Of a stretch of 64,000 nt of DNA, positions 4,435 through 51,928 are shown piece by piece (within the stretch, counting starts at the first letter, position 1; each line of letters begins with the position of its first letter). Position numbers and translations under genes: made by a program. The DNA lies in NCBI GenBank assembly GCA_038868995.1, contig JAWCRZ010000004.1, positions 4,967-68,966 on the forward strand. Direction: 5' to 3'. Under the pieces are notes generated by a model. It made no database searches. It was not told where the DNA came from and saw only the letters and a program-made list of their open reading frames with translations. This DNA comes from Candidatus Woesearchaeota archaeon. GTDB lineage: Archaea; Nanobdellota; Nanobdellia; Woesearchaeales; ARS49.

Positions 4435-4569
4435 GGTTCTGTCAACTTAATGGTGCTGGCCGCTCTGCCTCGCTATGCAGGGGTCATTTTTCCTCCGCAC
4501 CTGCGAGGAGGAGAGAAAAATGAGTCCAGAGGACCAAAGGCAAGTTAGCACCAGAAACTTGACTTAACC
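4435..4569 (+). mobile_element. MITE copy 1 (orientation GGTKCTGTCAAC...GACTTAACC)
   Basis: 135 bp and non-coding. It has imperfect terminal inverted repeats and a central hairpin. It is flanked by the direct repeat CTCTGCAAT (4426-4434) / CTCTGCAAG (4570-4578). It is near-identical to the copies at 7072, 22090, 45793 and 51795. Confidence 0.8.
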
Positions 4570-4589
4570 CTCTGCAAGTGTCCTAAATC

Positions 4590-4597: not shown

Positions 4598-4610
4598 GCA
4601 ATTGACATCT

Positions 4611-7064: not shown

Positions 7065-7071
7065 TTGTTCG

Positions 7072-7211
7072 GGTTAAGTCAGGTTTCGGGTGCTAACTTG
7101 CCTTTGGTCCTCTGGACTCATTTTTCTCTCCTCATCGCAAATGCGGAGGAGAGAAAAATGACCCCGGCAAAGCCGGGGCAGAGCTGCCCGCACCATTAAG
7201 TTGACAGCACC
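7072..7211 (-). mobile_element. MITE copy 2 (reverse orientation)
   Basis: 140 bp, flanked by a perfect 9-bp direct repeat AATTGTTCG (7063-7071 and 7212-7220). The central hairpin is TTTTTCTCTCCTCATCGCAAATGCGGAGGAGAGAAAAA. Confidence 0.85.
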
Positions 7212-7225
7212 AATTGTTCGAAAGC

Positions 7226-7233
7226 ATTATAAA
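7226..7233 (+). promoter_or_regulatory. Putative TATA box (ATTATAAA) for the E1alpha-E1beta-E2 operon
   Basis: It lies 6 nt after the MITE target-site duplication and about 41 nt before ATG 7271. That ATG is preceded by an AGAGGAAG SD-like element. Confidence 0.4.
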
Positions 7234-7270
7234 CGCGCGCGTGTATTATTTCTTTGCAAAAAGAGGAAGC

Positions 7271-8350
7271 ATGCAGAAGACAGTTGGCAAGTTTACGGTT
7301 AAGTACGTCCAAATTATTGACGAAAAGGGCAATGTTGACAGGAAATTGGAGCCAAAGTTGTCTCCGCAACAGTTGCGCGATCTGTATAGATGGATGGTTC
7401 TGGAAAGAACATTTGACAACACAGCGCTTGCGCTGCAAAGGGAAGGAAGGATTGGCACTTATGCGCAAAGTTTGGGGGAGGAGGCAGTGCACGTCGGCTC
7501 TGTTTTTGCGTGCAAGGATGAGGACTGGATTTTTCCCGATTACCGCGAGCATGCCGCTTTTTTGATGCGAAAGGTTCCGGTTAAGATGCTGTTGATGCAT
7601 TGGGGAGGCAGCGAGGATGGTATGTCGCTGCCCGACAAGGCAAACATCATGTCTGTCTGCATTCCTGTTGGGACGCAGACCTTGCATGGCGCCGGCGCTG
7701 CAATTGCGATGAAATTGCAGAAAAGGAAGGCGTGCACGCTGACGTTTGTTGGTGATGCCTCAACAAGCACCGGCGATTTTAATGAGGGGCTGAATTTTGC
7801 GGGTACGTATGTTGCGCCTGCTGTTTTTGTAATCCGTAACAATCAGTGGGCGATTTCTGTGCCCCGCACGTGCGGGAAGTCGGACTGGGGCGGTTGTCAG
7901 TCAAGAGCGGAGACGTTGGCGCAGAAGGCGATTGCTTTTGGATTTGATGGCATTCAGGTTGACGGCAATGACGTTCTCGCGGTTTATTCTGTGATAAAGC
8001 AGGCATTGGACAGGGCGCGCGCGGGAAAAGGTCCGACTCTTGTGGAATGTAACACTTATCGTCTTGGCCCTCACACGACTGCTGATGATCCTACAAGGTA
8101 CCAGGACCCGAAAGTTTTGAGGGAATGGCAGGCAAAGGAGCCGCTAAGTAGGTTTAGGGAGTATTTGAAAAAGAAGAAGTTGTTGGACAGGAAGTTTGAG
8201 GCGGCGGTGCAGGCAGAGGCGAAGCGGATTGTTGACCAGGGCGTTAAGGAGTTTGAGAAGCACAAGCCGTCGCCGACTGATATGTTTGATTTTGTGTACG
8301 AGAAACTTACGCCGAATTTGGAGGAGCAGCGGAAGGAATGGCAAAGCTGA
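7271..8350 (+). CDS. 2-oxoacid (pyruvate/branched-chain/acetoin-type) dehydrogenase E1 component, alpha subunit (TPP-dependent)
   Basis: It resembles the E1alpha family (YRWMVLERTFDNTALALQREGRIG, GDASTSTGDFNEGLNFA, RLGPHTTADDP). Substrate specificity is not assignable by eye. Confidence 0.9.
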   Translation: MQKTVGKFTVKYVQIIDEKGNVDRKLEPKLSPQQLRDLYRWMVLERTFDNTALALQREGRIGTYAQSLGEEAVHVGSVFACKDEDWIFPDYREHAAFLMRKVPVKMLLMHWGGSEDGMSLPDKANIMSVCIPVGTQTLHGAGAAIAMKLQKRKACTLTFVGDASTSTGDFNEGLNFAGTYVAPAVFVIRNNQWAISVPRTCGKSDWGGCQSRAETLAQKAIAFGFDGIQVDGNDVLAVYSVIKQALDRARAGKGPTLVECNTYRLGPHTTADDPTRYQDPKVLREWQAKEPLSRFREYLKKKKLLDRKFEAAVQAEAKRIVDQGVKEFEKHKPSPTDMFDFVYEKLTPNLEEQRKEWQS

Positions 8351-9315
8351 CCATTGTTGAGGCGGTGCGGGATGCGCTGGATGTGGAGCTTGGGAGAGAT
8401 GAAAGGGTTGTTGTTCTTGGGGAGGATGTTGGCAGGGACGGCGGTGTTTTCCGCGCAACTGACGGCTTGTGGAAGAAATATGGCGACCACCGGGTTATCG
8501 ATACTCCCCTTGCAGAGTCAGGCATTGTTGGCGTGAGCATCGGGATGGCATTGCAGGGATTGCTGCCTGTTGCTGAAATCCAGTTTGACGGCTTTACCTA
8601 TCCGGCGTTTGACCAGATGTTCTCTCACGCTGCCAGAATCAGGAATCGTACGCGCGGCAAATATACCTGCCCGATGGTGCTACGCTTTCCGTACGGCGGC
8701 GGCATTCGCGCGTTGGAACATCATAATGAAAGCCCTGAGGCGTATTTTGTGCATACGCCCGGCTTGAAAGTGGTTATTCCAAGCAATCCATATGATGCCA
8801 AGGGTCTGCTCATTTCTGCCATTCGCGACCCAGATCCGGTTGTCTTTATGGAGCCGAAGCGGATTTATCGTGCCATTCGTGATGAGGTGCCCGATGGCGA
8901 GTATACTGTTGAGATTGGCAAGGCAAAGATTGTGAATGAGGGGACTGATGTAACATTAATCGGCTGGGGCGCGATGATGCGCGAATGTTTGAAAGCTGCA
9001 GATTCGGCTGCAGCAAAGGGCATCCGTGCAGAAGTCATCGATGTAAGAACGCTGAATCCGTGCGATTGGGACACTTTATTGGCAAGCGTTCAAAAAACAG
9101 GAAGAGCTGTTGTTGTTCACGAAGCTCCGCGCACCTTGGGCTTTGGGGCGGAGATTGCTGCACGAATTCAGGAGAAGCTATTATTATATCTTAAAGCGCC
9201 TGTTCTGCGCGTGACTGGCTATGACGCTCCGTTCCCCTATTTTAAGCTTGAAGATGCCTATTTGCCAAATCCGGAAAAGATTGGCAAGGCAATTGAAAAG
9301 GTGATGACGTTCTGA
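8338..9315 (+). CDS. 2-oxoacid dehydrogenase E1 component, beta subunit
   Basis: It has the motifs VLGEDVG..GGVFRATDGL, DTPLAESGIVG and EIQFDGF. It overlaps the alpha subunit by 13 nt. Confidence 0.9.
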   Translation: MAKLTIVEAVRDALDVELGRDERVVVLGEDVGRDGGVFRATDGLWKKYGDHRVIDTPLAESGIVGVSIGMALQGLLPVAEIQFDGFTYPAFDQMFSHAARIRNRTRGKYTCPMVLRFPYGGGIRALEHHNESPEAYFVHTPGLKVVIPSNPYDAKGLLISAIRDPDPVVFMEPKRIYRAIRDEVPDGEYTVEIGKAKIVNEGTDVTLIGWGAMMRECLKAADSAAAKGIRAEVIDVRTLNPCDWDTLLASVQKTGRAVVVHEAPRTLGFGAEIAARIQEKLLLYLKAPVLRVTGYDAPFPYFKLEDAYLPNPEKIGKAIEKVMTF

Positions 9316-10565
9316 TGGCATATGATTTCAGATTGCCGGACCTGGGGGAAGGTATTGCCGAGGGGGAATTAATCAAATGGCTTGTGAAAGAAGGCGACAA
9401 AGTGGAGGAGCACCAGCCGATTGTTGAGCTTGAGACAGACAAGGCAGTGGTGCAGGTGCCAAGCCCCAGGGCAGGAATAATTTTGAAGACATATGGCGGG
9501 CCCGGGGAAAAAATCAAGGTTGGAGAAATTTTGTGCACAATTGGCGAGGCAGGGGAGAAAGTCAGCGCGCCAGCACTCAAGGCAGCTGCCAAAAAGGTTT
9601 CAACAACAGTAATCGGCCAATTGGAAGAGGCGCCGGAAGAGGAGGAAAAGAAAGTTGCACCAATGCCGCCAAAAAAAACTGCAGAGCCGGCCGTTGCGAC
9701 CTTGCCTGCTGTTAGAAAGCTTGCGCAGGAGATGGGCGTTGATATTTCCAAAATTCAGGGTTCAGGTCCAGGAGGCAGAATTACCGAGGATGATGTTCGC
9801 CGGGCGTCGGGAAAAGTTGCGAAAGAGGAGCCAAAAGGCCCCACAGTAACATTTGAACGCTTTGGCAGGGTTATTCGCCTGCCGTTGAAAGGAATCAGGA
9901 GAACGATTGCCGAGAATATGCGCGAGAGCTTGAGCAGGGCAGCTCACGTGACGCATATGGATTATGCAGACGTGACCAAACTTGCTGAATTCAGGGAGAA
10001 GGAGAAGGAGGAGGCGGAAAAGAAAGGGGTTCATTTGACATTTATGCCTTTTATTGTCAAGGCGTGCGTTCTTGCGCTGAAGGAATTTCCCTATGTCAAT
10101 TCAAGCTTGGATGATGAAAAACAGGAAATTGTTCTGAAGCAGTATTACCATATTGGAATTGCTGTTGACACGCCTGCCGGATTGATGGTGCCTGTTGTTC
10201 ATAATGCGAATGAAAAGACCATTTTGGAGATTGCTCGTGACATCTGGAGGGTTGCAGAGCTTGCCCGCACTCGTGAAATCCAGCTGAAGGATTTGCAGGG
10301 CAGTACTTTCACCATTACCAATGTTGGCAGTTTGGGGGGCGAGTTTGCAACGCCCGTCATTAATTATCCGGAGTGTGCAATTCTCGCATTGGGCAGAATA
10401 TCTGAAAAGCCGGTGGCAGTGGAAGGAAAAGTTGAAATCAGGAAGATGCTTCCGTTGTCGCTTTCATTTGACCACCGAATTATTGACGGCGCTTTGGCTG
10501 CGAAGTTTGTAAATGAAATCAAGCGCCATTTGGAGAATCCCGACGCGTTGCTGATGGGGTATTAG
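9315..10565 (+). CDS. Dihydrolipoamide acyltransferase (E2) with one lipoyl domain, a subunit-binding domain and a catalytic domain
   Basis: It has the lipoyl-lysine motif ELETDKAVV, the PSBD-like segment PAVRKLAQEMGVDISKIQGSGPGGRI and the catalytic motif SLSFDHRIIDGA. Confidence 0.9.
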   Translation: MAYDFRLPDLGEGIAEGELIKWLVKEGDKVEEHQPIVELETDKAVVQVPSPRAGIILKTYGGPGEKIKVGEILCTIGEAGEKVSAPALKAAAKKVSTTVIGQLEEAPEEEEKKVAPMPPKKTAEPAVATLPAVRKLAQEMGVDISKIQGSGPGGRITEDDVRRASGKVAKEEPKGPTVTFERFGRVIRLPLKGIRRTIAENMRESLSRAAHVTHMDYADVTKLAEFREKEKEEAEKKGVHLTFMPFIVKACVLALKEFPYVNSSLDDEKQEIVLKQYYHIGIAVDTPAGLMVPVVHNANEKTILEIARDIWRVAELARTREIQLKDLQGSTFTITNVGSLGGEFATPVINYPECAILALGRISEKPVAVEGKVEIRKMLPLSLSFDHRIIDGALAAKFVNEIKRHLENPDALLMGY

Positions 10566-16858: not shown

Positions 16859-16930
16859 TGTGACGCACTTGTCACAATGTGCATCTATAAGACGAAACAG
16901 GATTTAACCCTTTGTGACGAAAAAGTCATA
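16859..16930. promoter_or_regulatory. Two copies of a TGTGAC-N6-GTCAYA palindrome in a divergent intergenic region (candidate operator)
   Basis: TGTGACGCACTTGTCACA lies at 16859-16876, between the predicted TATA (about 16884-16891) and ATG 16847. TGTGACGAAAAAGTCATA lies at 16913-16930. Confidence 0.4.
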
Positions 16931-17144
16931 GTGATGATGGATTAAGCGGTGTTTGCAACAAAAGCTTATGTGGTCCTAAAACACGTGTTTTATAGAAGGA
17001 ATAGGAATTCATGCTGGCATAAAGCCACACAATATCATCAGAGCAGGCAAACACTTGACTTAAGGGCTCTTTGTTGCAAGGAAATTTTAGGAATTATGAA
17101 GAAAGACATGACATGAACAAAACAATATAGTCGTACCATAAACC

Positions 17145-17152
17145 TTTAAATA
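17145..17152 (+). promoter_or_regulatory. Putative TATA box (TTTAAATA); the downstream gene looks leaderless
   Basis: The TATA centre is 26-27 nt upstream of ATG 17175. Confidence 0.4.
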
Positions 17153-17174
17153 CTGCTCTCTGTTAGTTTGGGGT

Positions 17175-21999: not shown

Positions 22000-22089
22000 A
22001 GTTTTATTCTTGTAATGCTCAACGTTGCTGTATTTGATATAACAAGCTTTTGCCATATTTTACTCGCTGACGAAGAAAGGAAGTTAAGG

Positions 22090-22229
22090 GGTTAAGTCAG
22101 GTTTCTGGTGCTAACTTGCCTTTGGTCCTCTGGACTCATTTTTCTCTCCTCCTCGCAAATGCGGAGGAGAGAAAAATGATTTCAGCGAAGCTGAGGCAGA
22201 GCAGCCAGCACCATTGAGTTGACAGCACC
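22090..22229 (-). mobile_element. MITE copy 3 (reverse orientation), the best-preserved copy
   Basis: 140 bp, with a perfect 9-bp direct repeat AAGTTAAGG at 22081-22089 and 22230-22238. It has a perfect 14-bp central stem, TTTTTCTCTCCTCC / GGAGGAGAGAAAAA. Confidence 0.9.
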
Positions 22230-22244
22230 AAGTTAAGGAAAACT

Positions 22245-22252
22245 TTATAAAA
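22245..22252 (+). promoter_or_regulatory. Putative TATA box (TTTATAAA); the downstream gene looks leaderless
   Basis: The centre is about 26 nt upstream of ATG 22274. It lies 6 nt after the MITE target-site duplication. Confidence 0.45.
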
Positions 22253-22273
22253 AGGCGTTCAGCGCTGTGAATT

Positions 22274-22564
22274 ATGGCAGAGCATTTTATGGGCGCGTTT
22301 TTTGTTATCGCAATAATACTGTTCAGCATTGCTGGTGCTGGAACAATACTGAAATTTACTGAGAGCAGGCGTGAGTGCAGCACCAACAGCGAGTGCGGCA
22401 ATGGCTATTGTGGAAGTGATTTCAAGTGCCATCCTTTTCCGGTTATTGAAAACACGATTGTGAAGAATGACTGGACCACTCCGTCCGCGATTCTTGGGCT
22501 CGCTATTGTTTTTGCTGCCATGATTTTGAGAAGAAGGCAGCAGCCGCCAAGGCAGTTTTACTGA
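22274..22564 (+). CDS. Small two-TM protein with a Cys-rich loop
   Basis: TM helices at both ends flank the loop CSTNSECGNGYCGSDFKC. Confidence 0.5.
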   Translation: MAEHFMGAFFVIAIILFSIAGAGTILKFTESRRECSTNSECGNGYCGSDFKCHPFPVIENTIVKNDWTTPSAILGLAIVFAAMILRRRQQPPRQFY

Positions 22565-26004: not shown

Positions 26005-26803
26005 GCTTGCTCCAGGTTGCGATTATCATATGCAGTCGCGCAAAGGCGAGCGCGGGTATTGTTATGAACAGTATGATTGCCAGTGCAATGAGGGGTTTGG
26101 TTGCAAGCCAGTTGAATGGCAGCGAGCACGCGATAAACAGGATGATTGTATTGACGAGGAATGCAGGAATGATTGTTTTTGCATGTTTGATGCCATAGAT
26201 GAACGTGTTCTTAAAGGTTTGTTGCGACGGTATGAGGGCAAAACTGACCTGGCTGAAGTAAAAGATTGCCAAAAAGACGACATACATGAACATTGTGACC
26301 CAGAACGGGCTTATAATAGGGAGTATTGTTGTTGTGCTTCCTGTGCCTATGCTGTAAAGTGAAAATGCAATTATGAGCACGATAAACCAGAACAGGCACA
26401 ATAATGGAAACTTAATCAGCACTGTCTTGAATGGCATTTTTTTTAGTATGCTTTTGTGGGATATGTACCATAATGGTGTTCTGAAAACTGCAAATGCTGC
26501 GAACAAGCTGGTGATGAAAAAGCCCATATGGGCGAGCAGCTCGTGGTATGCCGTCATGAATTCCTCATTCTGCGCCAGCAGTCCTTCCAACTGGTAGAGT
26601 TCTGTCTCCTGCAGTTTTTCCACTTCTTTCGTCATTATTTCACCTGCTCTTGCTGCCGCTTCCGCGCTTGGCACGAAATATGTCAGGTGTATTTGCGTGA
26701 GCACGAACAAAAACACAAACTCTATCAAAACTATCCATATCAAGTACTTCTTGTTTTCCTTAAACGCCAGCCAGGCACGGGGGAGTGTTTGGGATAAAGT
26801 CAT
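25997..26803 (-). CDS. Module B3: polytopic membrane protein (counterpart of A4)
   Basis: About six hydrophobic helices with a helical loop after TM1. Its start abuts the B2 stop (TAAATG). Confidence 0.6.
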   Translation of the reverse strand: MTLSQTLPRAWLAFKENKKYLIWIVLIEFVFLFVLTQIHLTYFVPSAEAAARAGEIMTKEVEKLQETELYQLEGLLAQNEEFMTAYHELLAHMGFFITSLFAAFAVFRTPLWYISHKSILKKMPFKTVLIKFPLLCLFWFIVLIIAFSLYSIGTGSTTTILPIISPFWVTMFMYVVFLAIFYFSQVSFALIPSQQTFKNTFIYGIKHAKTIIPAFLVNTIILFIACSLPFNWLATKPLIALAIILFITIPALAFARLHMIIATWSKHG

Positions 26804-29800
26804 TTAGTTCACCCAGTTCGTATTAACTGGCGGAGTCTTCGGCATTGGATTGGCGGGATAACACATATTTTTGGTATCACTGTCGCCAAAGTTTGGGTCA
26901 CTGTATAGATACTGGTGAACATACTGCATTTCTCTCCTGCCATTCTTCACGGTGAATTCTGGCACCAGATACGCTGCTCTTCCGTCGTCTCCAAATATGT
27001 CGTTGTCGACGCAGGTTACTCGTGGCATGAATGTTTTGCAGTTGTCCTCGCACACGCCTCGCTTGACGGAATACTCAATCACGTCATCGCAGTCTTCGCC
27101 GACTAGATCGTAGCAGAAGTCTTTAAGATTCTTATTGAAGAATATCTTATCAGACGGAAGTCCCTCATATCCCCAGTAAACAGTATAATCTTTGGGATTG
27201 TACCCTATCCACTCATCAGCTGCTATAACTATTACATCTCCGTTCTTTTTATCACAGATTTCGCCTTGGTCGATAGCGCCGTTGCCGCAGGTTGTTGTTT
27301 GTGGTGGGGGGGTTATTGCTTGTTGCGGCGCGGGTGGCTGTTCTTCCACCGCTTCTTTGACTACCTCTTCTGTCTTCTTTGGCACCAGTCCAAGGTCCTT
27401 ATTTAGAGCATTAACTGCAAAAGCGCGCATTATTTTGATACCGTCGAGTTCAAAGGCGACTTGGGAGAGAGCTGCTCTTATATTTTCTGGAGTTGGGCCT
27501 CCAGGCCCGGTCGGAGCACGCTGCGACATTGCATTAAGCCGATACTTGATATCATTCAACCTGTCTACAGAAATCGGTAGGCCGTAAATTGCTATTATAG
27601 ATCCAGGAGGAACTATCGTCTGCACCTTTCTCTCTAAGAAGTTCTTCACTTCTATAGGTACCTCTGTATTTTGTCCTTCATAGGACTTAACAAGCGAGGA
27701 TAACCCTTGTATTTCCAGTTCTTTAGCTTTGATAAAGGACTCTAAATCATTTATAATCTGCCTCGAAGTGAGACTTTGCTGTAACTGGTCGTCACTTTCT
27801 GCCAGTTTTCCTGAAAGATAATTTGCAAAAATATCGTCCTGGTTTCCAGCGTTTTCTATTTTGTCTCTTAGATCGCGGAGCCTTTTGGTAATGGTTTCTC
27901 TAACGACACAACACTTTTTGCCATCTGGGCAATAGATGTAGCTGCCAGTGTGTTCAAAAGAATTGCCTGTGCATTCGGAATCGCATTTGTATAAATCTCC
28001 GTTCTTTGTGCCGCTGCAGTAATTTGCGGCTGGTAGCTTCCAGCAGGTTTGGGTTGTAATGGTCCTGCATTGCTTGCTTGCGTCAGTTATCCAAGGTCCT
28101 GTAAAGATGTCAGCAGAGCATAGATAATAATTGCCTTCAGCGTCTGTTTGTTTGTCCGGGCATGCTTCTTTCTCTCCAGCCGCTGCCGGCAAGAGCGCCA
28201 GAAGCTCGCTTTTCTTGTCTATCGCGTTCGCCAGTATCGGCCTAAACTCTTGCAATTGTTCTCTTATTGCAGTGACATCAGTTGTCTTTGATATTTCTTC
28301 TCTTGCTGAATTCGCACGGAACGGAACGTTTGCCGCTTTGAAAACTGCAGTTACTTGAATTCCAAGAATGCCTTCAAGCTGCGGAATTTCTCCAAGCACC
28401 GCGTATAGTTGATTTGCTGCCTTTGATATACTCTGCAATTCTGTTTTTCCTTCAAGGTTTTTCAAATATTTGGTCTGTAGAACTGCCGCGTCAGCAAGTT
28501 CTGTTGACGCGATTGTGCTGAGCAGTTGCTGTATTGCCATTGAATTCTCTATCTTTATGTCTCCTTCCAGCCATTTGTTAACGTCTGCAAGGTGCTTTTC
28601 TTGTCTTTGCTTGAACGTTGTAACATCCGTTCTCAGTCCCGCCAGTATTTCTGCCAGCCCGAGTATTCCTTCCAGTGGCTCGAGCTCTTTTGCTGTCGCG
28701 CATATTGCGTTGAATGGTATGGTGAAGATTGCTTCTGCTCCCGTATACGGGTCTATTGAGACCTGGTCTGTTGGGCTTCCGTATTGGTCTGCGTCAAATG
28801 CCATTAATTGCATGGTAAACTGTTGTATTGGTCTGTTTTTTACGTCGCCAGCGCACGGGTCTGCTGCGCGTGGTATGTTGAGGTCTATGTGGAGTTGTAT
28901 TGTTTCGTCTGTTGTTGGCAGGACTGCGTCTGGCTTGAGGGTTATTGTAAGAGTGTCTTGTGGGATTGGCGCTTGTCCTGGCGCTGGCGTTATTTGCGGT
29001 GTGCAGGTGATTCTGTTTCCTGCTGTGCCTGTGCAGAGCGCTGGCTGTGCAACATAAAATCCTCCTTTTTCTCCGCCAAGTGTTGTGCTGACGCCTGCAG
29101 TGTATACTGCATAATTCACTTTGTCTGCTTGTCTTGTCAGCTCAAGCACGTATTGCTTGCGTGTTGTTACCGGCCCTGCAAGGCCTACTAATTGCACATT
29201 GTCGATTATTTTGTTGTCGGATATCGCGCTTGGGTTTTTGTTTGTCCATTGCCTGATTGCGAATGGCTTTCCTGGTTCTGTTGTGGTGAACCATTCTTTT
29301 TTGACTTCTATTGGCACGTTATCTGCTGCAAGGCGTTTTGTGTAGTCGCCGTTTGTCTGCAGCAAAATGAGCCCTCTGTCTTTGTTTGTGGCAAGTTCTC
29401 TTCCGCCAGGCCCGATTATTGTGTACTGCAGGTATTTGTTGTATTGTTCTCCTCCCGGGTAGTCCTGCTGCAATGATACGCCGATGTTGAGGTTTTCCTG
29501 GATGCCGTAGGCAGGTCCTTTGTCTTTTAGGTTGTGCGGGTATTCTACCTTGCCCTCTTTGAAGCGTATTCCTCCCGCCGCTTCTCCGAATGAGCATCTG
29601 AAGCTTACTGTGAATGGGTCCCATCTGCAGAACGCTGGCAAGCTGCCGCCTCCGCCTGTCTGCCCGATTGAGCAGGGCTCTGTTTTGTCTTCGCGCATCT
29701 GCTTGTTGGCTTCTTTCCACCTGTACAGCAGATATGCTTTGTCGTAGCGGACATTGCTTTCCCCGCTTCCTGCCTGCATTGTGTAGAATATTTCCTCGCT

Positions 29801-32800
29801 CAGTATTTGGTTTTTCTTTGCGCGAGCTGGCAGGTTCTCTGGCCTGATTACGATGTCGCGCTTGCCTTTGCCTTGGCAGTCGCATCTTCCGTTTTCAAAC
29901 CCGTCTGATTCTTTGCAGCTGTAGTCGTCGCTGCATACCAGGTGGAGTTCTACTTCTGCGTCCGCTCCTGCTGCGAAGAATGCGCCGAAGTGGTACACCC
30001 AGGTTACCAGTCCGCCTGGTCGTGTGGATGGGTTGAATGCTACAAATCTTCTGTTGCATGGCGTCAGTAATGCCTGGCTGTTTAGCGGGATATCGTCTAC
30101 CGACTGGTCGAAGACTGCTCCAAGGTCGAGGTTCCACGTGCCTGTGAATGCCCACATGCATATCGAATGGACGAGTTTTCTGTCTACAAAGACCGCCTTG
30201 TACATGCCTGTTTCGCCGTATCTTCCTTCCACTTCTCTTGACATTTCGCTGCCTGCTGCTACAAGCGCTCCCATTATGTCTCCGCCGCCTTCGCGTTCTA
30301 TTCTGCCTTGTCCTGTGCTGAATTTTTGGGTGAAGCAGGCAAGCGCGTCATACAACAAATCACACACGTATTGGCTTACCAGTGCCTGGCAGACGCCGTT
30401 TTCGCCGTCCCCTGTCAGCAATATCGTGTCAACGCAGCTTTTGACCGCTCCCATAATGTTGCGCCAGAGCTTTAGGTAGCCGATTATTGTTGGGAAGCAG
30501 AGGCATCTGATTGAGTTTACCAGTCCGTCGTTTGGTTTGATGATGTATTCTTTGTCTGGTGTGCCTATTGCTGCAATGACTTGTGCGTATAGTGATTTTG
30601 CGTCAAACTTGCTTGAACCGCTTGCCTTGCTTAAGTCTTCGGCAAATTCGTCGGGTATTGCGCCTGTTTTCCTGTACTTGTCTATTGCCTCTTGTTTGAA
30701 GTTTCTTTCTTGGAAGTCCTCAAATCCAGGGTATTCGACAACATCAAGTTTTTCTGTTAGTTTGGAGCGTTCGCTTGTTGCAAGCACGTCTGGCTTGTCG
30801 CTCTTTTGGAATTCGAGTGTCTTTACGATAATTCCGAGCTTTATTGAATATCCTTGTGATGCGCCTCTCGTGAGTATTCCTTCGAGTGCGTTTTCTCCTC
30901 CTTTTTCCTGCACTATGATGTAGAGTTCTTGGCTTTCTGCAAATTTTTGCAGTTCAAGGTCTTCTGCTACATTGGAGGATATTGTTGTAACTCTAATCGG
31001 CGTCAATGGTGGCATTCCGTTTTTCTCGCAGAAGCCGCCAAGGGCATTGAGGAGTTTGTTGCACTGCACCGGTTCTCCGTCTTGTCCTTCAATCTCGTTC
31101 TTTCCTATCTGTTGTGCCGAGAGGCAGGTGCTTTCTTTTATTTCGTCAAAAGTGTCAAGTCCTTGTCCGAGCGCGCTGACTCCGCAGGCAGAGCTCCATT
31201 CCTGCATGTATTCGTAGCCGCAGCATTCTGGTGTTGCCGGGTGCAGGCCTGCGCAGTTCACTCCTTCTCCTTCTCCAGCAGTGTCTGATTGGTGTTTGAG
31301 CCAGTCGTTGTAAATGCCTTGTATTTGTGTATTGGTGAAGAACAGTCGTGGTGGGATTATGATTCTTTTTGCCCGTGTCTCCCTTGCTCCAATGTCGTTT
31401 GCGTTTTTGAGCACCCAGGCGGCGCAGTCGCTGCCTGTGTAGAGTTTTCCGTTTACGAGGTAGTCCTTGAATTCTTCTTTGGCATTTTCTGCTTTTACTT
31501 CTGTTGGTGTTTGCCTGCCGCGTGTTCGCAAATAATATTGCAGTGATGGGGCTGCCGGGCACATTACCCTGTCGCACACTTGCCTGTATGTTCTGACGAA
31601 TTTTTTGCGGTAGTCCTTCCATTTCGCGCAGGTGTTGCAGTTTTCTGCTGAATCGCTTCCTGCACCGTATTCCGCGTCGCACGCGTTTATTGCTGCCACG
31701 TTGACGTCAAATGCTCCTTCCCCTCCCGAGAGGATGTCTGTGACTTTTTTGAATTCGCAATTGTACTTTTCAAGGAATATTGGCACGTATGAGAGGAATT
31801 GTCCTGCTACGCAGGTGTAAAAGAGGTATTTTCCAATTGTTTGTATTGGCGTGAGTATTTTGTCTATGCCCTCAACTATTTTGCCGAGTGTTCTGCTTAC
31901 TGTTTTTAGCATTCCTGAAGGAAGCACATCTGGCGGTATGCGCCGGTCGATTGCAATGTTGACGTCTATGCACGTCCGTTGTGTCAGGTGCTCGACCACT
32001 TCTTTTTCAAGCGTGCCGGCCACTTTCGGGTCGTACGCCATTTTCATGCTTGTCTCTGTGAAGGGTATTTCGAGCTCGATGAACAGCTTCATGCAGCCCA
32101 AGCCGGGCACGCAGTCGCCGAGCCGGTGATTTGATATTCTTTCTTCCCGCTCAAACATTGTTGCGTTTGCCGGCGCTTGCTCTGTTTTGCCGTCTTTTTC
32201 AGGCAGTTCCCAGGGATCGTCGATTGGCTGGAAGTTTATCTGTATGTAGCCGACGCCTTGGGGCTTGGCGGCGCGTTGTGCCCTGACGTTTGGCGCTCGA
32301 ACCTGGATGAGGTTGTTGTCGTATTCTTTTCTGACGTCTGGCGCGAGAACAAGCGGCTTTACTCTGATGTTTCTGGCATCTATTGTTGCTTTTTGGCCCC
32401 CGCGATACGTGTAATTAAATGCAATGCCTACTTGTTGTATTCCTTCGATGAGCAATCGCGGGTTTAGTATCTCAGGCATCGGCTCGCTTAATTGCACGTC
32501 TATCCACGTTCCGCTGCCGCAGATTGCGTATGTTATTTCGACTTCTGGTGTGCTTGCCTTCAGTCCTGCTGCGTCGATTGCTTCAAGGCGGACTTTGCTT
32601 TTCCATTGTATTCCTGCGTCGATTGATACAGCGCTTCCGGTTATTGATGTTTGCCCTGCCTTGGAGCCGATGGGTCTTTCGAGCTTTACTTTGATTGAGA
32701 AGCTTCCATCCGCGTCTGTTGTCACAGTTTTTTGAGGTCTGCCGTTTACGAATGCTGTGACGCTTCCAGGCTCTGAAAGTTTTCCTTTGACTTCCACTTC

Positions 32801-33451
32801 CTGCCTGTATGATGGTGATAGTTTGTCGAGGTTGGTTGTTTCAAAGCGTGGCGGTCCTGTGTCGTACACCACTCGCTCCTCAACGACTGTTCTGAAACCC
32901 GCTTTGTCGATTGCGATGAACGTGACCATGTTCTCTCCGGGTGTGAGGGCTACCTGGACTTCATTGCTGCCTGCTTGCAGGGTGTGGTTTTTTGGTGTTG
33001 CGTTGCCTGCCTGCACAGTCAGGTTGACCGGCTCTGAGAGTTTGACTTTTGCAGTTGCAGTGGCCGTAGTGACAACCGGCGGTATTGTGATATTCATCAG
33101 CGGCGCTGAATTGTCAACATCCGCCTGGTATGTCTGCGTTGCTGTTTCTCCTGCAAGTTCTGCTTTGACGACTATTGTGCTGCTCGGCTGGAGTGGTACG
33201 TTTTTGAAGAGGAATGTGCTTCCTTCGATTATGTCTTTTTTGGTATCCACTCCGTTGATGGTTATGGTGACTGTTGCGCCTGGCTTTGTTGTTCCGGGGA
33301 TGTCTATGTTTGCAATGCGTGGGTATCGTGGAATCGTTGCATTGACGAAAAGCGGGGTTTCCGCTGCCTGCCCGTTGGTTGCCTGTGCTTCGACTATTGG
33401 AAGCATCACGATGAGCCATGCAAGGCATATTGCAATTATGTTTTTGTTCAT
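26804..33451 (-). CDS. Module B2: giant (2215 aa) secreted Cys-rich protein
   Basis: An uninterrupted 6.6-kb ORF with the signal peptide MNKNIIAICLAWLIVMLPIVEAQA. It has N-terminal Ig-like beta-rich domains and a Cys-patterned core shared with A2. It also has a helical LEGILG-repeat region and one C-terminal CGNGAIDQGEICD repeat. Confidence 0.85.
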   Translation of the reverse strand: MNKNIIAICLAWLIVMLPIVEAQATNGQAAETPLFVNATIPRYPRIANIDIPGTTKPGATVTITINGVDTKKDIIEGSTFLFKNVPLQPSSTIVVKAELAGETATQTYQADVDNSAPLMNITIPPVVTTATATAKVKLSEPVNLTVQAGNATPKNHTLQAGSNEVQVALTPGENMVTFIAIDKAGFRTVVEERVVYDTGPPRFETTNLDKLSPSYRQEVEVKGKLSEPGSVTAFVNGRPQKTVTTDADGSFSIKVKLERPIGSKAGQTSITGSAVSIDAGIQWKSKVRLEAIDAAGLKASTPEVEITYAICGSGTWIDVQLSEPMPEILNPRLLIEGIQQVGIAFNYTYRGGQKATIDARNIRVKPLVLAPDVRKEYDNNLIQVRAPNVRAQRAAKPQGVGYIQINFQPIDDPWELPEKDGKTEQAPANATMFEREERISNHRLGDCVPGLGCMKLFIELEIPFTETSMKMAYDPKVAGTLEKEVVEHLTQRTCIDVNIAIDRRIPPDVLPSGMLKTVSRTLGKIVEGIDKILTPIQTIGKYLFYTCVAGQFLSYVPIFLEKYNCEFKKVTDILSGGEGAFDVNVAAINACDAEYGAGSDSAENCNTCAKWKDYRKKFVRTYRQVCDRVMCPAAPSLQYYLRTRGRQTPTEVKAENAKEEFKDYLVNGKLYTGSDCAAWVLKNANDIGARETRAKRIIIPPRLFFTNTQIQGIYNDWLKHQSDTAGEGEGVNCAGLHPATPECCGYEYMQEWSSACGVSALGQGLDTFDEIKESTCLSAQQIGKNEIEGQDGEPVQCNKLLNALGGFCEKNGMPPLTPIRVTTISSNVAEDLELQKFAESQELYIIVQEKGGENALEGILTRGASQGYSIKLGIIVKTLEFQKSDKPDVLATSERSKLTEKLDVVEYPGFEDFQERNFKQEAIDKYRKTGAIPDEFAEDLSKASGSSKFDAKSLYAQVIAAIGTPDKEYIIKPNDGLVNSIRCLCFPTIIGYLKLWRNIMGAVKSCVDTILLTGDGENGVCQALVSQYVCDLLYDALACFTQKFSTGQGRIEREGGGDIMGALVAAGSEMSREVEGRYGETGMYKAVFVDRKLVHSICMWAFTGTWNLDLGAVFDQSVDDIPLNSQALLTPCNRRFVAFNPSTRPGGLVTWVYHFGAFFAAGADAEVELHLVCSDDYSCKESDGFENGRCDCQGKGKRDIVIRPENLPARAKKNQILSEEIFYTMQAGSGESNVRYDKAYLLYRWKEANKQMREDKTEPCSIGQTGGGGSLPAFCRWDPFTVSFRCSFGEAAGGIRFKEGKVEYPHNLKDKGPAYGIQENLNIGVSLQQDYPGGEQYNKYLQYTIIGPGGRELATNKDRGLILLQTNGDYTKRLAADNVPIEVKKEWFTTTEPGKPFAIRQWTNKNPSAISDNKIIDNVQLVGLAGPVTTRKQYVLELTRQADKVNYAVYTAGVSTTLGGEKGGFYVAQPALCTGTAGNRITCTPQITPAPGQAPIPQDTLTITLKPDAVLPTTDETIQLHIDLNIPRAADPCAGDVKNRPIQQFTMQLMAFDADQYGSPTDQVSIDPYTGAEAIFTIPFNAICATAKELEPLEGILGLAEILAGLRTDVTTFKQRQEKHLADVNKWLEGDIKIENSMAIQQLLSTIASTELADAAVLQTKYLKNLEGKTELQSISKAANQLYAVLGEIPQLEGILGIQVTAVFKAANVPFRANSAREEISKTTDVTAIREQLQEFRPILANAIDKKSELLALLPAAAGEKEACPDKQTDAEGNYYLCSADIFTGPWITDASKQCRTITTQTCWKLPAANYCSGTKNGDLYKCDSECTGNSFEHTGSYIYCPDGKKCCVVRETITKRLRDLRDKIENAGNQDDIFANYLSGKLAESDDQLQQSLTSRQIINDLESFIKAKELEIQGLSSLVKSYEGQNTEVPIEVKNFLERKVQTIVPPGSIIAIYGLPISVDRLNDIKYRLNAMSQRAPTGPGGPTPENIRAALSQVAFELDGIKIMRAFAVNALNKDLGLVPKKTEEVVKEAVEEQPPAPQQAITPPPQTTTCGNGAIDQGEICDKKNGDVIVIAADEWIGYNPKDYTVYWGYEGLPSDKIFFNKNLKDFCYDLVGEDCDDVIEYSVKRGVCEDNCKTFMPRVTCVDNDIFGDDGRAAYLVPEFTVKNGRREMQYVHQYLYSDPNFGDSDTKNMCYPANPMPKTPPVNTNWVN

Positions 33452-35478
33452 GTGAAAGTTGGTTCCAGGTTTTCGTGCTTTGTTTCGTATAGGAACAGGA
33501 ACATTTGCGCCTGTTTTTCTCCTGTGTCAGGCAATGGCCTCCATTCGAACACGTTGAAGACGACTTGTTCCGCCTGTGCTATCTGCTCGTATGTTATAGT
33601 GATGTTTTCTGCGTGGTAGCCGCCGACTACAGTGTTGCCTTTGAATAGGAGGATGTCGATGTCGTATCTGGCATCGTCGTAGACAAACTCTATTTCATCT
33701 TTTGCGACGTCAGACACGTCTGAAATGTCTGTTGTTCCGTCCGCCTGGAACTGGGTTGCGTTTGCCGGGTAGCTCTTGTACTGGTCAAAGCTTTGGTTTC
33801 TGAGTGATATCGCGACAGTTGCATGGGTTGTTTTTGGCAATCTGTTGTAGACGTCTCCCAGCCATCTCTTGTTTATTGAGTCATACGGGTGGACTGATAT
33901 TGTGTAAGGCAGTTTTTTCAGGCGCGTGAGCATCAGTTCAACGTTGTCGGTTGTTGCGTATTTGCTTGCGGACAGGTAGCCCTCTTTTTGTGCTGTTATG
34001 CGCGGGTTGGCGCAACCCTCTGGCAGGTAGCTGCGCAGGCGTATTACTCCTGTGCCGTCGCTGTACGTCTTGCCCAGCAGGCATTCTTGATTCATGCATG
34101 TGTATGTTATGTTTGCTTCATCAAGTTCTTCTGCTACCAGTCCTCCTTCGACAAAGCCCTTTGCCCTTACTTCGATTGATTGTGTTCCGAAGTTTGTGCA
34201 GAAGTCCGTGCCTTGGTCGGGAATGGTAAAGCGCTTGATGCCGAAGAACGTTCTGGCTTCCTCGTTGTCATTGATAATTACAGGGAATCCCATTTGGAAG
34301 ACGTAGCCCTCGCCGTTAAAGGCAGTGTCGTCTTTTACCTGCATTTTGACCGGGTAAATGACGTCGTAGGTGAAGTGCCATTGGTTTATGCAGAGGAATC
34401 TGAGGTACTTTCTTGCTCCTTTTACGTTTGCCGTGCTTAGTATTCCTCCGCTGCTTGGCTGTGCGTTGACAAGCAGGGGCCAGTTTGGCAGATATGTGAA
34501 TGCGACTTTCAGGTCTGTCCGTTTTGCTCCCACGTCAAGCATCATTCTGTTCATTTCAAACACGTCTGCTGGCGGGTTTTCAGGCCAGTCGGGCTCTCTG
34601 TTTGCTTCAAGGTCTTTCCTGATGTCCTTTGCGTCTGCTTTGAGGCTTGCATATGTTCGCAATGACGCAATTGGGGGAGGGTAGTTGGTGTTTGCTACTC
34701 TGATGAGTGGCAGGTTGTAGTAAAGAATTTTTTGAAGTTGTTTTTTGATGTCTTGTATGTGCCATTTCTTTGTCGCGCAGCTGATTTCCATTCCTGAGAA
34801 TGGTATTTTTTCGTTTGCTGTCATCAGGTCTATTGTCAAATTCTCAAACCATCCCTGCCTGTTTTCTGTTTCCATTGTCTGCCTGGCGAGCTCGTGCATT
34901 GCTTTGAGCTTGAGTGGGAAGCTGACTATGAACTCGTTTAATTGCATAAGCCGGTTTTGCACTGTCACTTCAAGCTGCCATTTGACTTCCACAATTACTT
35001 CTTCTTCTGTATATGTTATGACTGGCAGGATGTCGCTTTTTGGGGTTATGGTGAATCTTTCTTTGAACGCTTCAAAGTTGCCTGTGCAGGCAGGCAGGTT
35101 TTGCTTTACGTGGACTGCGAGTTCGCGTTGCATGAATTCAAGTGTTGGCGTTCTGTCTTCTCCTTCGTAATACCATAGTGGCGTTTTTGCTATGCCTGCC
35201 GGGTCTGCTGGTATGAACGCGTTTGGGTTTTTGTCGATAATCGGGGGTATGTTGATGTAGCCGCCTTGCGCTCCTTGCAGGATAAGACCATCTTTGGCTA
35301 TTTGCTCTGTGCACGTGGCAACGTAATCATATATTTGCTGGACTTCTTCAGGCACTGCCACTATTCTTTTTATCGGGGCTGTGACTCGCTGTTGGTAGAA
35401 GTATATGCCTATGGCTATGCTGAGTACAAGGATTATTCCGATAATGATGAATATCGTAATTTGTCCTCTTTTTTTCAT
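33448..35478 (-). CDS. Module B1: 676-aa protein with a class III (prepilin-like) signal, paralog of A1
   Basis: The N-terminus is MKKRGQITIFIIIGIILVL. An ATGA overlap joins it to B2. It is collinear with A1. Confidence 0.8.
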   Translation of the reverse strand: MKKRGQITIFIIIGIILVLSIAIGIYFYQQRVTAPIKRIVAVPEEVQQIYDYVATCTEQIAKDGLILQGAQGGYINIPPIIDKNPNAFIPADPAGIAKTPLWYYEGEDRTPTLEFMQRELAVHVKQNLPACTGNFEAFKERFTITPKSDILPVITYTEEEVIVEVKWQLEVTVQNRLMQLNEFIVSFPLKLKAMHELARQTMETENRQGWFENLTIDLMTANEKIPFSGMEISCATKKWHIQDIKKQLQKILYYNLPLIRVANTNYPPPIASLRTYASLKADAKDIRKDLEANREPDWPENPPADVFEMNRMMLDVGAKRTDLKVAFTYLPNWPLLVNAQPSSGGILSTANVKGARKYLRFLCINQWHFTYDVIYPVKMQVKDDTAFNGEGYVFQMGFPVIINDNEEARTFFGIKRFTIPDQGTDFCTNFGTQSIEVRAKGFVEGGLVAEELDEANITYTCMNQECLLGKTYSDGTGVIRLRSYLPEGCANPRITAQKEGYLSASKYATTDNVELMLTRLKKLPYTISVHPYDSINKRWLGDVYNRLPKTTHATVAISLRNQSFDQYKSYPANATQFQADGTTDISDVSDVAKDEIEFVYDDARYDIDILLFKGNTVVGGYHAENITITYEQIAQAEQVVFNVFEWRPLPDTGEKQAQMFLFLYETKHENLEPTFT

Positions 35479-35493
35479 TGTATTTTCCTTTAA

Positions 35494-35544
35494 TGGCAAA
35501 AAAGAGACCAGCCGGGGCTTTGCTTCGGCGCTGCCTCTTTTTTT
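35494..35544 (-). terminator. Hairpin plus T-run after vapC (terminator-like)
   Basis: The minus strand reads AAAAAAAGAGGCAGC...GCTGGTCTCTTTTTTGCC, with AAAAAAGAG/CTCTTTTTT arms plus an inner CAGC/GCTG pair. It lies between the vapC stop and the B1 start. Confidence 0.3.
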
Positions 35545-35549
35545 ATGAT

Positions 35550-35963
35550 TTATATCAATGCTTTTTCGATTGGTTTTCGTGTTATTTCTTTTATCTTGTC
35601 AAAATTTGCGTCATTGCTTATCATTGTCTTTATTCCACGGGAGCGCATGGTTGCATAATGAATCGCGTCGCGCGGATGCAATTCTGAGTGTGAAAAAATG
35701 TCAACTGCCTCGCTTATTACAGAATGAGAGGCATCGCAGACATCAAGATTTCTTAATGCAAGGATTGTCCTTGCAGTTGCTATTGCCTGTTCTTTTCCTC
35801 CTATTTTTTTGACAGCCCACATAACTTCACCAACCGTCAGAGCTGACGTGCAAGCAAGCAGTTTTCCTGTCTCTATTGCATCAATTATTCTGCGTGCTTT
35901 CTGCCCAAGCGCTCCTTGGTCCAATGCCGCTGTTGCAAAAACATTTGAATCGATGTAAATCAT
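35550..35963 (-). CDS. vapC: PIN-domain ribonuclease toxin
   Basis: It starts MIYIDSNVF with the conserved Asp and ends ...SNDANFDKI. It is 137 aa and overlaps the antitoxin by 4 nt. Confidence 0.85.
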   Translation of the reverse strand: MIYIDSNVFATAALDQGALGQKARRIIDAIETGKLLACTSALTVGEVMWAVKKIGGKEQAIATARTILALRNLDVCDASHSVISEAVDIFSHSELHPRDAIHYATMRSRGIKTMISNDANFDKIKEITRKPIEKALI

Positions 35964-36226
35964 AATTTTATTCCCGCCCTACGTGCACGTTCTTCATATT
36001 CTTCTATCGCATGCGTGTTTATTTTGACGCTTTTCTTGCCTATGCTTTTCGCTATTTGTTCGAATGCATGGGCAGCATTGATTTTTTCCTCCTTCTTTAC
36101 AATGAGCTCACCTTCTTTTTCTATGAATGTGACCATGCTTCCGGGCGCGATTTTGTATTCATCCCTGAACACTTTTGGAATTACAACCTGCCCTTTTGGT
36201 CCAACTTTTGTTTTGACTTCAACCAT
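35960..36226 (-). CDS. vapB: AbrB/SpoVT-fold antitoxin
   Basis: It has VGPKGQVVIPKVFRDEYKIAPGSMV, a swapped-hairpin AbrB-type motif. It is 88 aa and lies directly upstream of the PIN gene. Confidence 0.8.
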   Translation of the reverse strand: MVEVKTKVGPKGQVVIPKVFRDEYKIAPGSMVTFIEKEGELIVKKEEKINAAHAFEQIAKSIGKKSVKINTHAIEEYEERARRAGIKL

Positions 36227-36228
36227 TC

Positions 36229-36256
36229 CTTACCTCCGGTAAGAATAATTCTTACC
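36229..36256 (-). promoter_or_regulatory. Candidate VapB operator: three GGTAAG/CTTACC half-sites including a perfect 9+9 palindrome
   Basis: GGTAAGAAT-A-ATTCTTACC lies at 36238-36256, with an extra CTTACC at 36229-36234 overlapping the SD region of vapB. Confidence 0.5.
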
Positions 36257-36299
36257 TGAAGTAAAACTTCCGTATAACTCATATTTTAACCTTCTCATT

Positions 36300-37190
36300 T
36301 TAGTATTGCTTGAATTGTTTGATTACGTGGTAGAGGTATATTCTCAGCCACGCGATGAACAACACAACGAACAACATTGATATTGGCCGCATTATAGCGG
36401 TTGTTTGAAATAATCTGAATATTTGATAGAGCACTATGTAAATTACAAATGCGTACGTGTATGGAACTATGAGCAGGTGGAGTTTTGAGAGCCCCCAGCC
36501 GAGCCCGTTGGCAATGCTGTATCCCTTTTTCCGTGTTTGCATGTAAAGCGTGTGCATTATTGCTGTAAAATACGCAGCAACGCCCAGTATGAGGGCTATG
36601 CTGGCTCCGGCAATTTGTGTTCCGTAATTTTTTGTTCCGATTAGCATAAAGATGAATATTGGAAGCCAGATTGCCCACCAGCCGAGGTTTAAAAGCGCCC
36701 ATTGTCCGAAGAATTTCTTGTCTGCTTTCTGTCTTGCTATTGTTGTCCAGATGTATCCGCGGGAGAGGACGTATGCTATGAATACAAGTGCAAACAGCAC
36801 GAGCAGTCCGATGTAGAGATAGCTGACAAAGCCCTGCAATGATGCCAGGCTTTGTGCTGCAATTTCCGGGTTTGCGAGCGCTTCCTTGTTGACAAACCCT
36901 GCTGTTTGTGCCGCTGTTGCTTTTGCCTGGAGCCGCCATTGGAAGAAGTATACCGCTCCAAAGACGAAAAGCCAGTAGAGCGCGTCGCAGAGTGCGGTGG
37001 TGAAGAGTGTTTTCCAGCGGGCGAGTGCTGTTATTGCTGTATCCAGCATTTTTTGCGTGTAAGCTTCTTTTGCTGCGAGTAGCACAATGCCTGCAATGCC
37101 GAGCCCTATCCATCCTTGCAGTTTGCTGAAATAGGCGAGTGCTGCTATTATTATTAGCAATCCTCCGATTATGCGGGGTGTGTGTTTCAT
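36300..37190 (-). CDS. Module A4: polytopic membrane protein (counterpart of B3)
   Basis: I chose ATG 37190 because it gives an ATGA overlap with A3 and removes an R/S/T-rich non-membrane leader. There are about seven hydrophobic helices. Confidence 0.7.
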   Translation of the reverse strand: MKHTPRIIGGLLIIIAALAYFSKLQGWIGLGIAGIVLLAAKEAYTQKMLDTAITALARWKTLFTTALCDALYWLFVFGAVYFFQWRLQAKATAAQTAGFVNKEALANPEIAAQSLASLQGFVSYLYIGLLVLFALVFIAYVLSRGYIWTTIARQKADKKFFGQWALLNLGWWAIWLPIFIFMLIGTKNYGTQIAGASIALILGVAAYFTAIMHTLYMQTRKKGYSIANGLGWGLSKLHLLIVPYTYAFVIYIVLYQIFRLFQTTAIMRPISMLFVVLFIAWLRIYLYHVIKQFKQY

Positions 37191-45792: not shown

Positions 45793-45917
45793 GGTGCTGT
45801 CAACTTAATGGTGCCGCGCTGGCCTGACTTTTCTTCTCCCCTTGCAAGTGCGTGGAGAGAAAAATCATCACGACAACGTCGAGGCAGCGCGGCCAGCACC
45901 AGAGAGTTGACTTAACC
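45793..45917 (+). mobile_element. MITE copy 4
   Basis: 125 bp, with a perfect 9-bp direct repeat CGGTGACTT at 45784-45792 and 45918-45926. It has the same termini, GGTGCTGTCAAC...GTTGACTTAACC. Confidence 0.85.
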
Positions 45918-51794: not shown

Positions 51795-51928
51795 AATTCT
51801 GTCAACTTAATGGTGCTGGCCGCTCTGCCCCGGCTTTGCCGAGGTCATTTTTCCCTCCTCCGCATTTGCGAGGGGAAAATGATTTCAGAGGACCAAAGGC
51901 AGGTTAGCACCAGAAACTTGGCTTAACC
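51795..51928 (+). mobile_element. MITE copy 5
   Basis: 134 bp and collinear with copy 1. The first two bases differ (AATTCTGTCAAC) and no clean 9-bp duplication is found. The right flank TTCTGTCAG resembles the element's own left terminus. Confidence 0.7.

Follow-up and report, generated by a model that had tools for sequence, protein, structure and literature searches.

Results

Genome setting of the window

The window, by which we mean the whole 64-kb stretch of DNA analysed, encodes the ribosomal proteins S6e, S19e and L39e as well as an archaeal Pth2, and among named homologues the best matches to its ThrRS and Dus come from Candidatus Woesearchaeota/Nanoarchaeia MAGs. The host is thus an archaeon, most likely one of the Woesearchaeota/Nanoarchaeia. 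Its G+C content in this window is ~47%. The genome is very compact, with most spacers measuring 5-60 bp, and almost all spacers longer than 140 bp hold one of the elements that are the subject of this work. The gene order includes a VIT1-like gene followed by a cluster for lipoyl synthase, lipoate-protein ligase and pyruvate dehydrogenase (PDH) E1-alpha, E1-beta and E2 (4602-10565), a richer central metabolism than DPANN archaea usually have. A block on the reverse strand (26804-44177) contains large ORFs of 2215, 683, 582, 1033 and 728 aa together with small ones, without Pfam matches; it is syntenic in three related Woesearchaeal loci (L009, L012 and L013) and may code for a conserved surface structure or secretion system of unknown type. 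Within ORF territory on the forward strand (26029-26120), ARAGORN called a tRNA-His of 92 nt with the anticodon ATG; in view of its odd anticodon and its length, this call may be a false positive or a tRNA with an intron.

A family of short inverted-repeat elements

A previous, sequence-only reading of this DNA had proposed a MITE family, here termed MITE-A, with five copies. All five (c1 to c5) are present, with lengths of 125-140 bp (Table 1). When the window was scanned with the left-end 18-mer CTGTCAACTTAATGGTGC, six sites were found at no more than 3 mismatches versus 0.07 expected, and the right-end 23-mer gave five sites versus 0.00 expected. Similarly, an nhmmer profile built from the five copies found each of them again, with E values from 4e-26 to 5e-47. 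Copies c1, c2, c3 and c5 share pairwise identities of 87-92%; c4, a shorter and more diverged variant, is ~78-81% identical to these. The termini GGTGCTGTCAACTTAATGGTGCTGGC and GGTTAAGTCAAGTTTCTGGTGCTAAC, previously described as imperfect inverted repeats of about 26 bp, match at 18 of 26 positions and pair with each other in the consensus fold, and they exceed the minimum of 10-15 bp for MITEs. The central hairpin, said to be perfect in c3, has a 14-bp stem, TTTTTCTCTCCTCC-N10-GGAGGAGAGAAAAA, without a mismatch in that copy.

Four copies had been reported to lie between 9-bp direct repeats, and these are indeed perfect in c2, c3 and c4 and identical at eight of nine positions in c1. Including the further elements described below, the target-site duplication is constantly 9 bp long and its sequences are unrelated from site to site, with eight of nine positions matching in c7 and MITE-B as well. 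Element sizes, 125-142 bp overall, fall within the MITE range of ~50-800 bp, and none of the six frames is both long and free of stop codons, so the elements have no coding capacity of their own. The ORF 22111..22401, which crosses c3 and had been dismissed as an artefact, is indeed one and overlaps a conserved gene on the opposite strand (22274-22564), a real 96-aa ORF that is 67% identical to its orthologue. In c1, c2 and c3 the central palindrome also gives rise to mini-ORFs of the form GGAGG-N8-ATG on both strands, for example MSPEDQRQVSTRNLT*, which end in the TTAA of the termini; they are probably a by-product of the palindrome. Thus, the MITE interpretation is supported on each testable point, namely small size, lack of coding sequence, terminal inverted repeats, unrelated 9-bp duplications and multiple copies.

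Table 1. Elements of the window, their 9-bp flanks and the TATA boxes of the adjacent genes.
Feature	Position	Strand	Length	Flanking duplication	Distance from duplication to TATA box	Spacer	Remarks
c1, MITE-A	4435..4569	+	135 bp	CTCTGCAAT at 4426-4434, CTCTGCAAG at 4570-4578, i.e. CTCTGCAA(T/G)	11 nt (exception)	TGTCCTAAATC	right end toward promoter of VIT1-like gene
c2, MITE-A	7072..7211	-	140 bp	perfect, AATTGTTCG at 7063-7071 and 7212-7220	5 nt	AAAGC	distal duplication overlaps TAA stop of LplA-like gene; left end toward PDH E1-alpha promoter
c3, MITE-A	22090..22229	-	140 bp	perfect, AAGTTAAGG at 22081-22089 and 22230-22238	5 nt	AAAAC	
c4, MITE-A	45793..45917	+	125 bp	perfect, CGGTGACTT at 45784-45792 and 45918-45926	5 nt	CAACG	diverged subfamily; between Pth2 and S6e
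c5, MITE-A	51795..51928	+	134 bp	right flank TTCTGTCAG at 51929-51937; no clean left duplication	5 nt (S19e)	AAAGC	left terminus damaged (AATTCTG...)
c6	49971-50060	+			5 nt (before MITE-B arrival)	CAACA	degenerate, right-truncated MITE-A copy; nhmmer E=3.9e-13
c7	44232-44365	-	134 bp	CTGTAGGGC at 44223-44231, GTGTAGGGC at 44366-44374	5 nt	CAACA	diverged member; nhmmer E=7e-4
MITE-B	49820-49961	.	142 bp	GCTTCTGC(G/A) at 49962-49970 and 49811-49819	5 or 6 nt, by boundary choice	CAACA	
TATA box of VIT1-like gene, TTTTTAAA	4590..4597	+		 	11 nt (c1)		kept in L015, L017
TATA box of PDH E1-alpha, ATTATAAA	7226..7233	+			5 nt (c2)		kept in empty orthologue
TATA box of 96-aa gene 22274-22564, TTTATAAA	22244..22251	+			5 nt (c3)		
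TATA box of gene 41991-44177, TTTATAAA	44210..44217	-			5 nt (c7)		
TATA box of S6e, TTTATAAA	45771..45778	-			5 nt (c4)		kept in L009, L013
TATA box of ThrRS, TTTTTAAA	49798..49805	-			5 (or 6) nt (MITE-B, proximal)		kept in L008, L009
TATA box of S19e, TTTATAAA	51943..51950	+					14 nt from c5 right end; kept in five related loci

Repeat and profile searches revealed three additional elements, c6, c7 and MITE-B, bringing the total in the 64 kb to eight. The left end of c6, GGTGCTGCCAAC, abuts the distal duplication of MITE-B. The termini of MITE-B, GGC(T/G)GTATTGAAA, are unlike those of MITE-A, and the MITE-A profile gave only weak nhmmer matches to it; its build is nevertheless that of MITE-A, with terminal repeats, a GC hairpin, a central palindrome of a T-run and an A-run, and a second small hairpin. 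Sequence evidence that c7 and MITE-B are homologous to MITE-A is marginal (E ~7e-4); further support comes from their common architecture, 9-bp repeats and position. The duplications of c5, c6, c7 and MITE-B are imperfect or ambiguous, with boundaries uncertain by ~1 nt; for example, the flanks of MITE-B become a perfect CGCTTCTGC when its boundaries are moved by 1 nt. Elsewhere in the window, a gene-free stretch of 299 bp (16864-17162) contains a C-box-like GTGATGATGG and the 13-mer ACTTGACTTAAGG, which resembles the right end of the MITE, and the MITE profile gives no call there. This stretch may represent a C/D-box small RNA or the remains of a very ancient copy.

Related loci with empty sites

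Syntenic loci were taken from related species, in which ThrRS is 84-91% and Dus 80-83% identical to the window. The orthologous intergenic regions, whose comparison had been proposed as a check, are empty in the relatives at the c1, c2, c3, c4 and c6/MITE-B loci, each with a single copy of the target. At c4, the spacer between Pth2 and S6e is 48 bp in L009 versus 48+125+9 bp in the window. At the same site L013 reads TAG-TTA-CAGTCACCG-TAACC-TTTATAAA, versus AAGTCACCG-CAACG-TTTATAAA at the duplication in the window; the 9-mer of L013 is present once and is nearly identical to the duplicated AAGTCACCG. The spacer between LplA and E1alpha at the c2 site is 44 bp in L015, with the TATA box present and no element. 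No element is found at the c1 site in L015 and L017, where the TTTTTAAA box is conserved, or at the c3 site in L017 and L018, and the spacer that holds c6 and MITE-B measures 51 bp in L008 versus 315 bp in the window. Loci that are empty in relatives and carry one copy of the target show insertion rather than an ancestral RNA. The sequence-only reading had also named a longer conserved sequence around the flanking repeats as a possible objection; the TATAA lying outside them turned out to be a pre-existing TATA box, and the 9-mers are unrelated to one another. Both of the refuting conditions set by that reading thus came out in favour of transposition.

Searches with nhmmer and blastn found no homologue of MITE-A, c7 or MITE-B in ~170 kb of related Woesearchaeal loci (L008-L018), from which it follows that the family is apparently lineage-specific; it is probably also young. 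In the same loci, a search for 9-bp repeats lying 3-7 nt from TATA boxes returned few pairs; most were separated by 300-1800 bp or had low-complexity sequence, and none bounds an element. An independent assembly (Logan, SRR27730035) supplied contigs that match the window at 99.98-100% identity, with 0, 0 and 1 mismatches. Of these, one (L020) starts inside c2, another (L021) inside c5, and a third (L007) starts inside c7 and ends inside c4; such breaks, here inside four elements, are what repeats are expected to cause. No insertion polymorphism was seen in these short contigs of one sample. Together, we conclude that this is a genuine, mobile MITE family with past transposition, accompanied by two related element types.

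Some regions of the related loci differ from the window in further ways. The spacer between Pth2 and S6e in L012 (13620-13768; GCA_035292785.1) is 149 bp rather than 48 bp and holds an unrelated, palindrome-rich insert of ~100 nt without a clear 9-bp duplication. A region of L015, a related JGI contig (2165-5247), carries two Phage_integrase (tyrosine recombinase) genes, is variable and missing from the window, and is probably an integrated element. In the interval between NUDIX and S19e (51707-52023 in the window), L008, L009, L012, L013 and L014 carry one to several variable genes (MazE/PIN, MazE/ParE, DUF433, acetyltransferase and others), and the window carries only c5. With its damaged left tip and no clean duplication, the c5 locus possibly arose by MITE-associated deletion or recombination.

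Position of the elements relative to core promoters

The TATAA motif conserved immediately beyond the duplications represents the TATA box of the neighbouring gene. These boxes lie 21-23 nt upstream of the ATG in apparently leaderless cases, and their conservation in empty orthologues shows them to be older than the insertions. The distance from the end of the duplication to the TATA box is exactly 5 nt in six of the eight elements (c2, c3, c4, c5, c6 and c7), which places the element end 14 bp from the box in either orientation. Insertions are found in both orientations, with the left end toward the promoter in c2, c3, c4 and c6 and the right end toward it in c1, c5 and c7. The ThrRS promoter was struck twice at the same 9-bp target, by the older, degenerate c6 and then by the intact MITE-B. 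In relatives, ThrRS and a divergent DNA-alkylation-repair gene have one common palindromic TATA box, TTTTTAAA, in a spacer of 51 bp (L008 6906-6956); in the window (49776-50090), c6 and MITE-B put the DNA-alkylation-repair gene ~264 bp away from that box.

Spacers reconstructed without the elements would have offered ~87, ~94 and ~28 alternative positions to c3, c5 and c7, respectively. When insertions were simulated as uniformly placed within the spacers, the probability of at least six of eight sharing one offset was ~1e-6 and that of at least four of eight ~1e-3, figures that rest on eight insertions in one 64-kb window. Within this window, there is good support for insertion ~14 bp upstream of TATA boxes. 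In archaeal promoters the 6-7 nt directly upstream of the TATA box form the TFB-recognition element (BRE), so the promoter-proximal cut coincides with the upstream edge of the BRE. Part of the promoter-adjacent pattern must be due to purifying selection, given how compact the genome is. However, a 9-bp duplication keeps the BRE intact at any offset of 0 or more, so selection alone would not choose an offset of 5, and the alternatives that were available to c3, c5 and c7 likewise argue that selection is not the whole story. The pattern suggests that the transposase selects archaeal core promoters as its target.

Internal hairpins and terminator-like modules

A scan with a bacterial-style terminator consensus, applied here to an archaeal host, found its best site in each scanned 20-kb region within an element, namely in c2 (GCCCCGGCTTTGCCGGGGT-CATTTTT) and in MITE-B (GCCTTGGCAAAGCCAAGGT-TCCTTTTTT). 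A partner module on the opposite strand (GGTCCTCTGGACT-CATTTTT and equivalents) was called in c1, c2, c3 and MITE-B, and c7 has one terminator-like module on one strand. With modules on both strands, the element has a central palindrome flanked by two convergent terminator-like modules. Oligo-T tracts act as termination signals for archaeal RNA polymerase, and the T5-T6 runs on both strands could therefore stop read-through.

Folded as single-stranded DNA, the MITE-A copies are more stable than shuffled sequences (z from -2.4 to -6.2), as is MITE-B (z -3.7). The pairing of the hairpin HP1 is kept through different sequences, CCCCGGC/GCCGGGG in c2 and CCTTGGC/GCCAAGG in MITE-B, with a change from G-C to A-T in c3. 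Double changes affect 3 of 47 pairs, too little covariation to support an RNA function. A search of the whole window against Rfam (15) gave no match at gathering thresholds; below threshold, c3 showed only matches to microRNA hairpins, at 17-33 bits versus thresholds of 70-118. Given this Rfam result, the weak covariation and the loci that are empty in relatives, a reading of the elements as structured RNAs was rejected.

Search for homologues and a parent transposase

The sequence-only reading had stated that the window holds no transposase, and the ~40 ORFs, searched with NCBIfam or Pfam, indeed contain no transposase domain. Exact searches with the terminal 18-mer against the GTDB representative genomes and JGI metagenome contigs returned chance matches only (18-23 nt), and the two termini had one chance match and none, respectively, in IMG/VR. 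The elements had no blastn match among plasmids and phages, and their concatenated six-frame peptides none at E<=1 in a set of 5.8 billion proteins. The absence of matches in Rfam or in any searched collection is consistent with the earlier description of the family as previously unannotated.

The 9-bp duplication and the GG termini point toward a DDE enzyme. The left end of MITE-A is identical at 16 of 20 positions to positions 4-23 of the inverted repeat (IR) of E. coli IS1 (NC_000913 19796-20563), an alignment scoring 9 versus 3.1 +/- 1.4 for shuffles (maximum 10), that is, ~4 sd above their mean with one shuffle higher. IS1 itself makes 9-bp target duplications, is reported to prefer sites beside AT-rich DNA, and has ends of a type that follows the GGnnnTG rule (ISfinder). 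The duplication length of the elements is that of IS1. As to their termini, the left end, GGTGCTG, fits the rule and the right end, GGTTAAG, does not, and the IR alignment begins 3 nt inward of the IS1 tip. No InsA/InsB-like gene was found in the window. IS1-family transposases occur in archaea, including Sulfolobus (PMC3718332). Termini and duplication length look IS1-like, and a parent insertion sequence of the IS1 family would fit them best.

Origins from elements of the IS256, IS903, IS4 or IS1595/IS1016 type are possible. These families also give duplications of 8-9 bp. A casposon-derived MITE was rejected on the basis of the 9-bp duplications; casposons, integrated by Cas1, make target duplications of 14-15 bp. 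IS6/IS26 termini have a conserved GG...TGTTGCAAA, and the likeness to them is confined to the first 8 nt of c1, GGTTCTGT. An IS6/IS26 origin was also rejected, as the duplications are 9 bp here versus the 8 bp made by the IS6 family (PMC7986276).

Discussion

Taken as a whole, these observations are best explained by a MITE family in a DPANN archaeon that is moved by a transposase and targeted to promoter edges, an explanation we consider probable. A transposase encoded elsewhere would bind the ~26-bp terminal inverted repeats and cut the target with a 9-bp stagger, and repair of the gaps would yield the 9-bp duplications; both the anatomy of the elements and the empty orthologous sites point to such cutting and repair. 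The promoter-proximal cut would be made 5 nt upstream of the TATA box, at the upstream BRE edge, and the transposase may recognise the BRE/TATA region either as a DNA sequence or shape or as a complex bound by TBP/TFB. Because 9 bp are duplicated, the core promoter would remain intact, making this a safe site in a genome with spacers of 5-60 bp. Finally, the two convergent modules, each a GC hairpin plus TCATTTTT, could block read-through from both sides, so that insertions might be tolerated or even be mildly useful as insulators. A bolder version, in which the landmark is TBP/TFB on the BRE/TATA or its bend, read with single-nucleotide precision, and the elements serve as mobile bidirectional terminators that insulate promoters, is one that we hold to be doubtful.

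Among the competing explanations, the one that survives best takes the elements for ordinary MITEs with little target preference and their position at promoter edges for survivorship, with insertions retained only between a stop codon and the next core promoter. The extreme compactness of the genome fits it, as only ~6-11 positions were available at c2 and c4 and the c2 duplication overlaps a stop codon. Nevertheless, the much roomier spacers of c3, c5 and c7 show the same single-nucleotide offset, one that BRE preservation does not favour, and one promoter was struck twice, at offset 5 and then at 5 or 6. Survivorship as the sole cause therefore seems unlikely to us. It is very unlikely that the repeat was spread by positive selection as a host-selected bidirectional terminator, insulator or structured small RNA, an idea that is compatible with promoter-targeted transposition rather than exclusive of it. 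It accounts well for the two convergent hairpin-plus-T5 modules, which include the best terminator-like sites of the scanned regions, and for the preserved HP1 pairing in c2, c3 and MITE-B and the folding scores. Yet there is no Rfam family, double changes are few, relatives do without the element at the same loci, and T-runs alone suffice for archaeal termination; moreover, function would leave the 9-bp duplications and the single-nucleotide positioning unexplained. An ancestral conserved intergenic element, with flanking repeats that belong to a longer motif, is hardly credible, as the conserved TATAA outside several copies that might suggest it is the TATA box already present in empty orthologues, the 9-mers are mutually unrelated, five loci are empty and the ~170 kb of related DNA contain no homologue.

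MITEs have been described from several archaea, among them Sulfolobus, Halobacterium and Haloquadratum (PMC10969869). A census from 2024 lists one Woesearchaeal genome with 105 MITEs per Mb, among the highest archaeal densities, and describes no families there (PMC11602168). The density found here, ~125 per Mb, is close to that value. In Sulfolobus, the MITEs SM1-SM4, SMN1 and SM3A are mobilised in trans by ISC1733 and ISC1058 (PMC3718332; Redder et al. 2001 cited there). Like these, the elements described here are short, non-coding and multi-copy, have terminal inverted repeats and target duplications, and depend on a transposase elsewhere in an archaeal genome. They differ in having no sequence similarity to the Sulfolobus MITEs, a DPANN host and no partner insertion sequence identified. 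Furthermore, the texts consulted on the Sulfolobus MITEs give no fixed position relative to promoters.

In bacteria, the Correia elements of Neisseria and the pneumococcal SPRITE/RUP elements are intergenic MITEs located mostly just upstream of genes, with regulatory modules that include promoters, IHF sites or hairpins resembling rho-independent terminators (PMC10969869). The archaeal elements resemble them in being intergenic, mostly upstream of genes and equipped with terminator-like hairpins. Correia and SPRITE/RUP elements, unlike those in the window, are bacterial, have TA or other short duplications and have no reported fixed distance to a core promoter; the elements in the window carry terminator-like rather than promoter modules and lie at archaeal host promoters of the BRE/TATA type. 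The closest analogy for the positioning may come from yeasts. Ty3 integrates at Pol III start sites via TFIIIB, and Tf1 of S. pombe at Pol II promoters; both are LTR retrotransposons with retroviral-type integrases and 5-bp duplications. What they have in common with the elements here is a near-fixed distance from a promoter element bound by proteins of the TBP/TFIIB family and a safe haven in a compact genome; unlike in those systems, recognition of DNA sequence alone would explain the present data equally well. Our search of the literature on archaeal MITEs and insertion sequences found no report of insertion at a fixed distance from the BRE/TATA, and the promoter-edge target preference is apparently undescribed.

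A new MITE family alone would be routine; what stands out is an archaeal class II element found at a single nucleotide position with respect to the BRE/TATA. Evidently, a reduced genome of the DPANN type can bear ~125 such elements per Mb with its gene order kept. If the preference were confirmed genome-wide, archaea would have a natural 'safe-harbour' integration system that is keyed to their promoters, the positions of the repeats would map promoters in uncultured DPANN genomes, and the family would offer a testable case of a transposase that reads the transcription-initiation machinery or its DNA signature. Should recognition be guided by the bound complex, the family would represent a prokaryotic DDE-transposon counterpart of promoter-guided integration of the Ty3/TFIIIB type.
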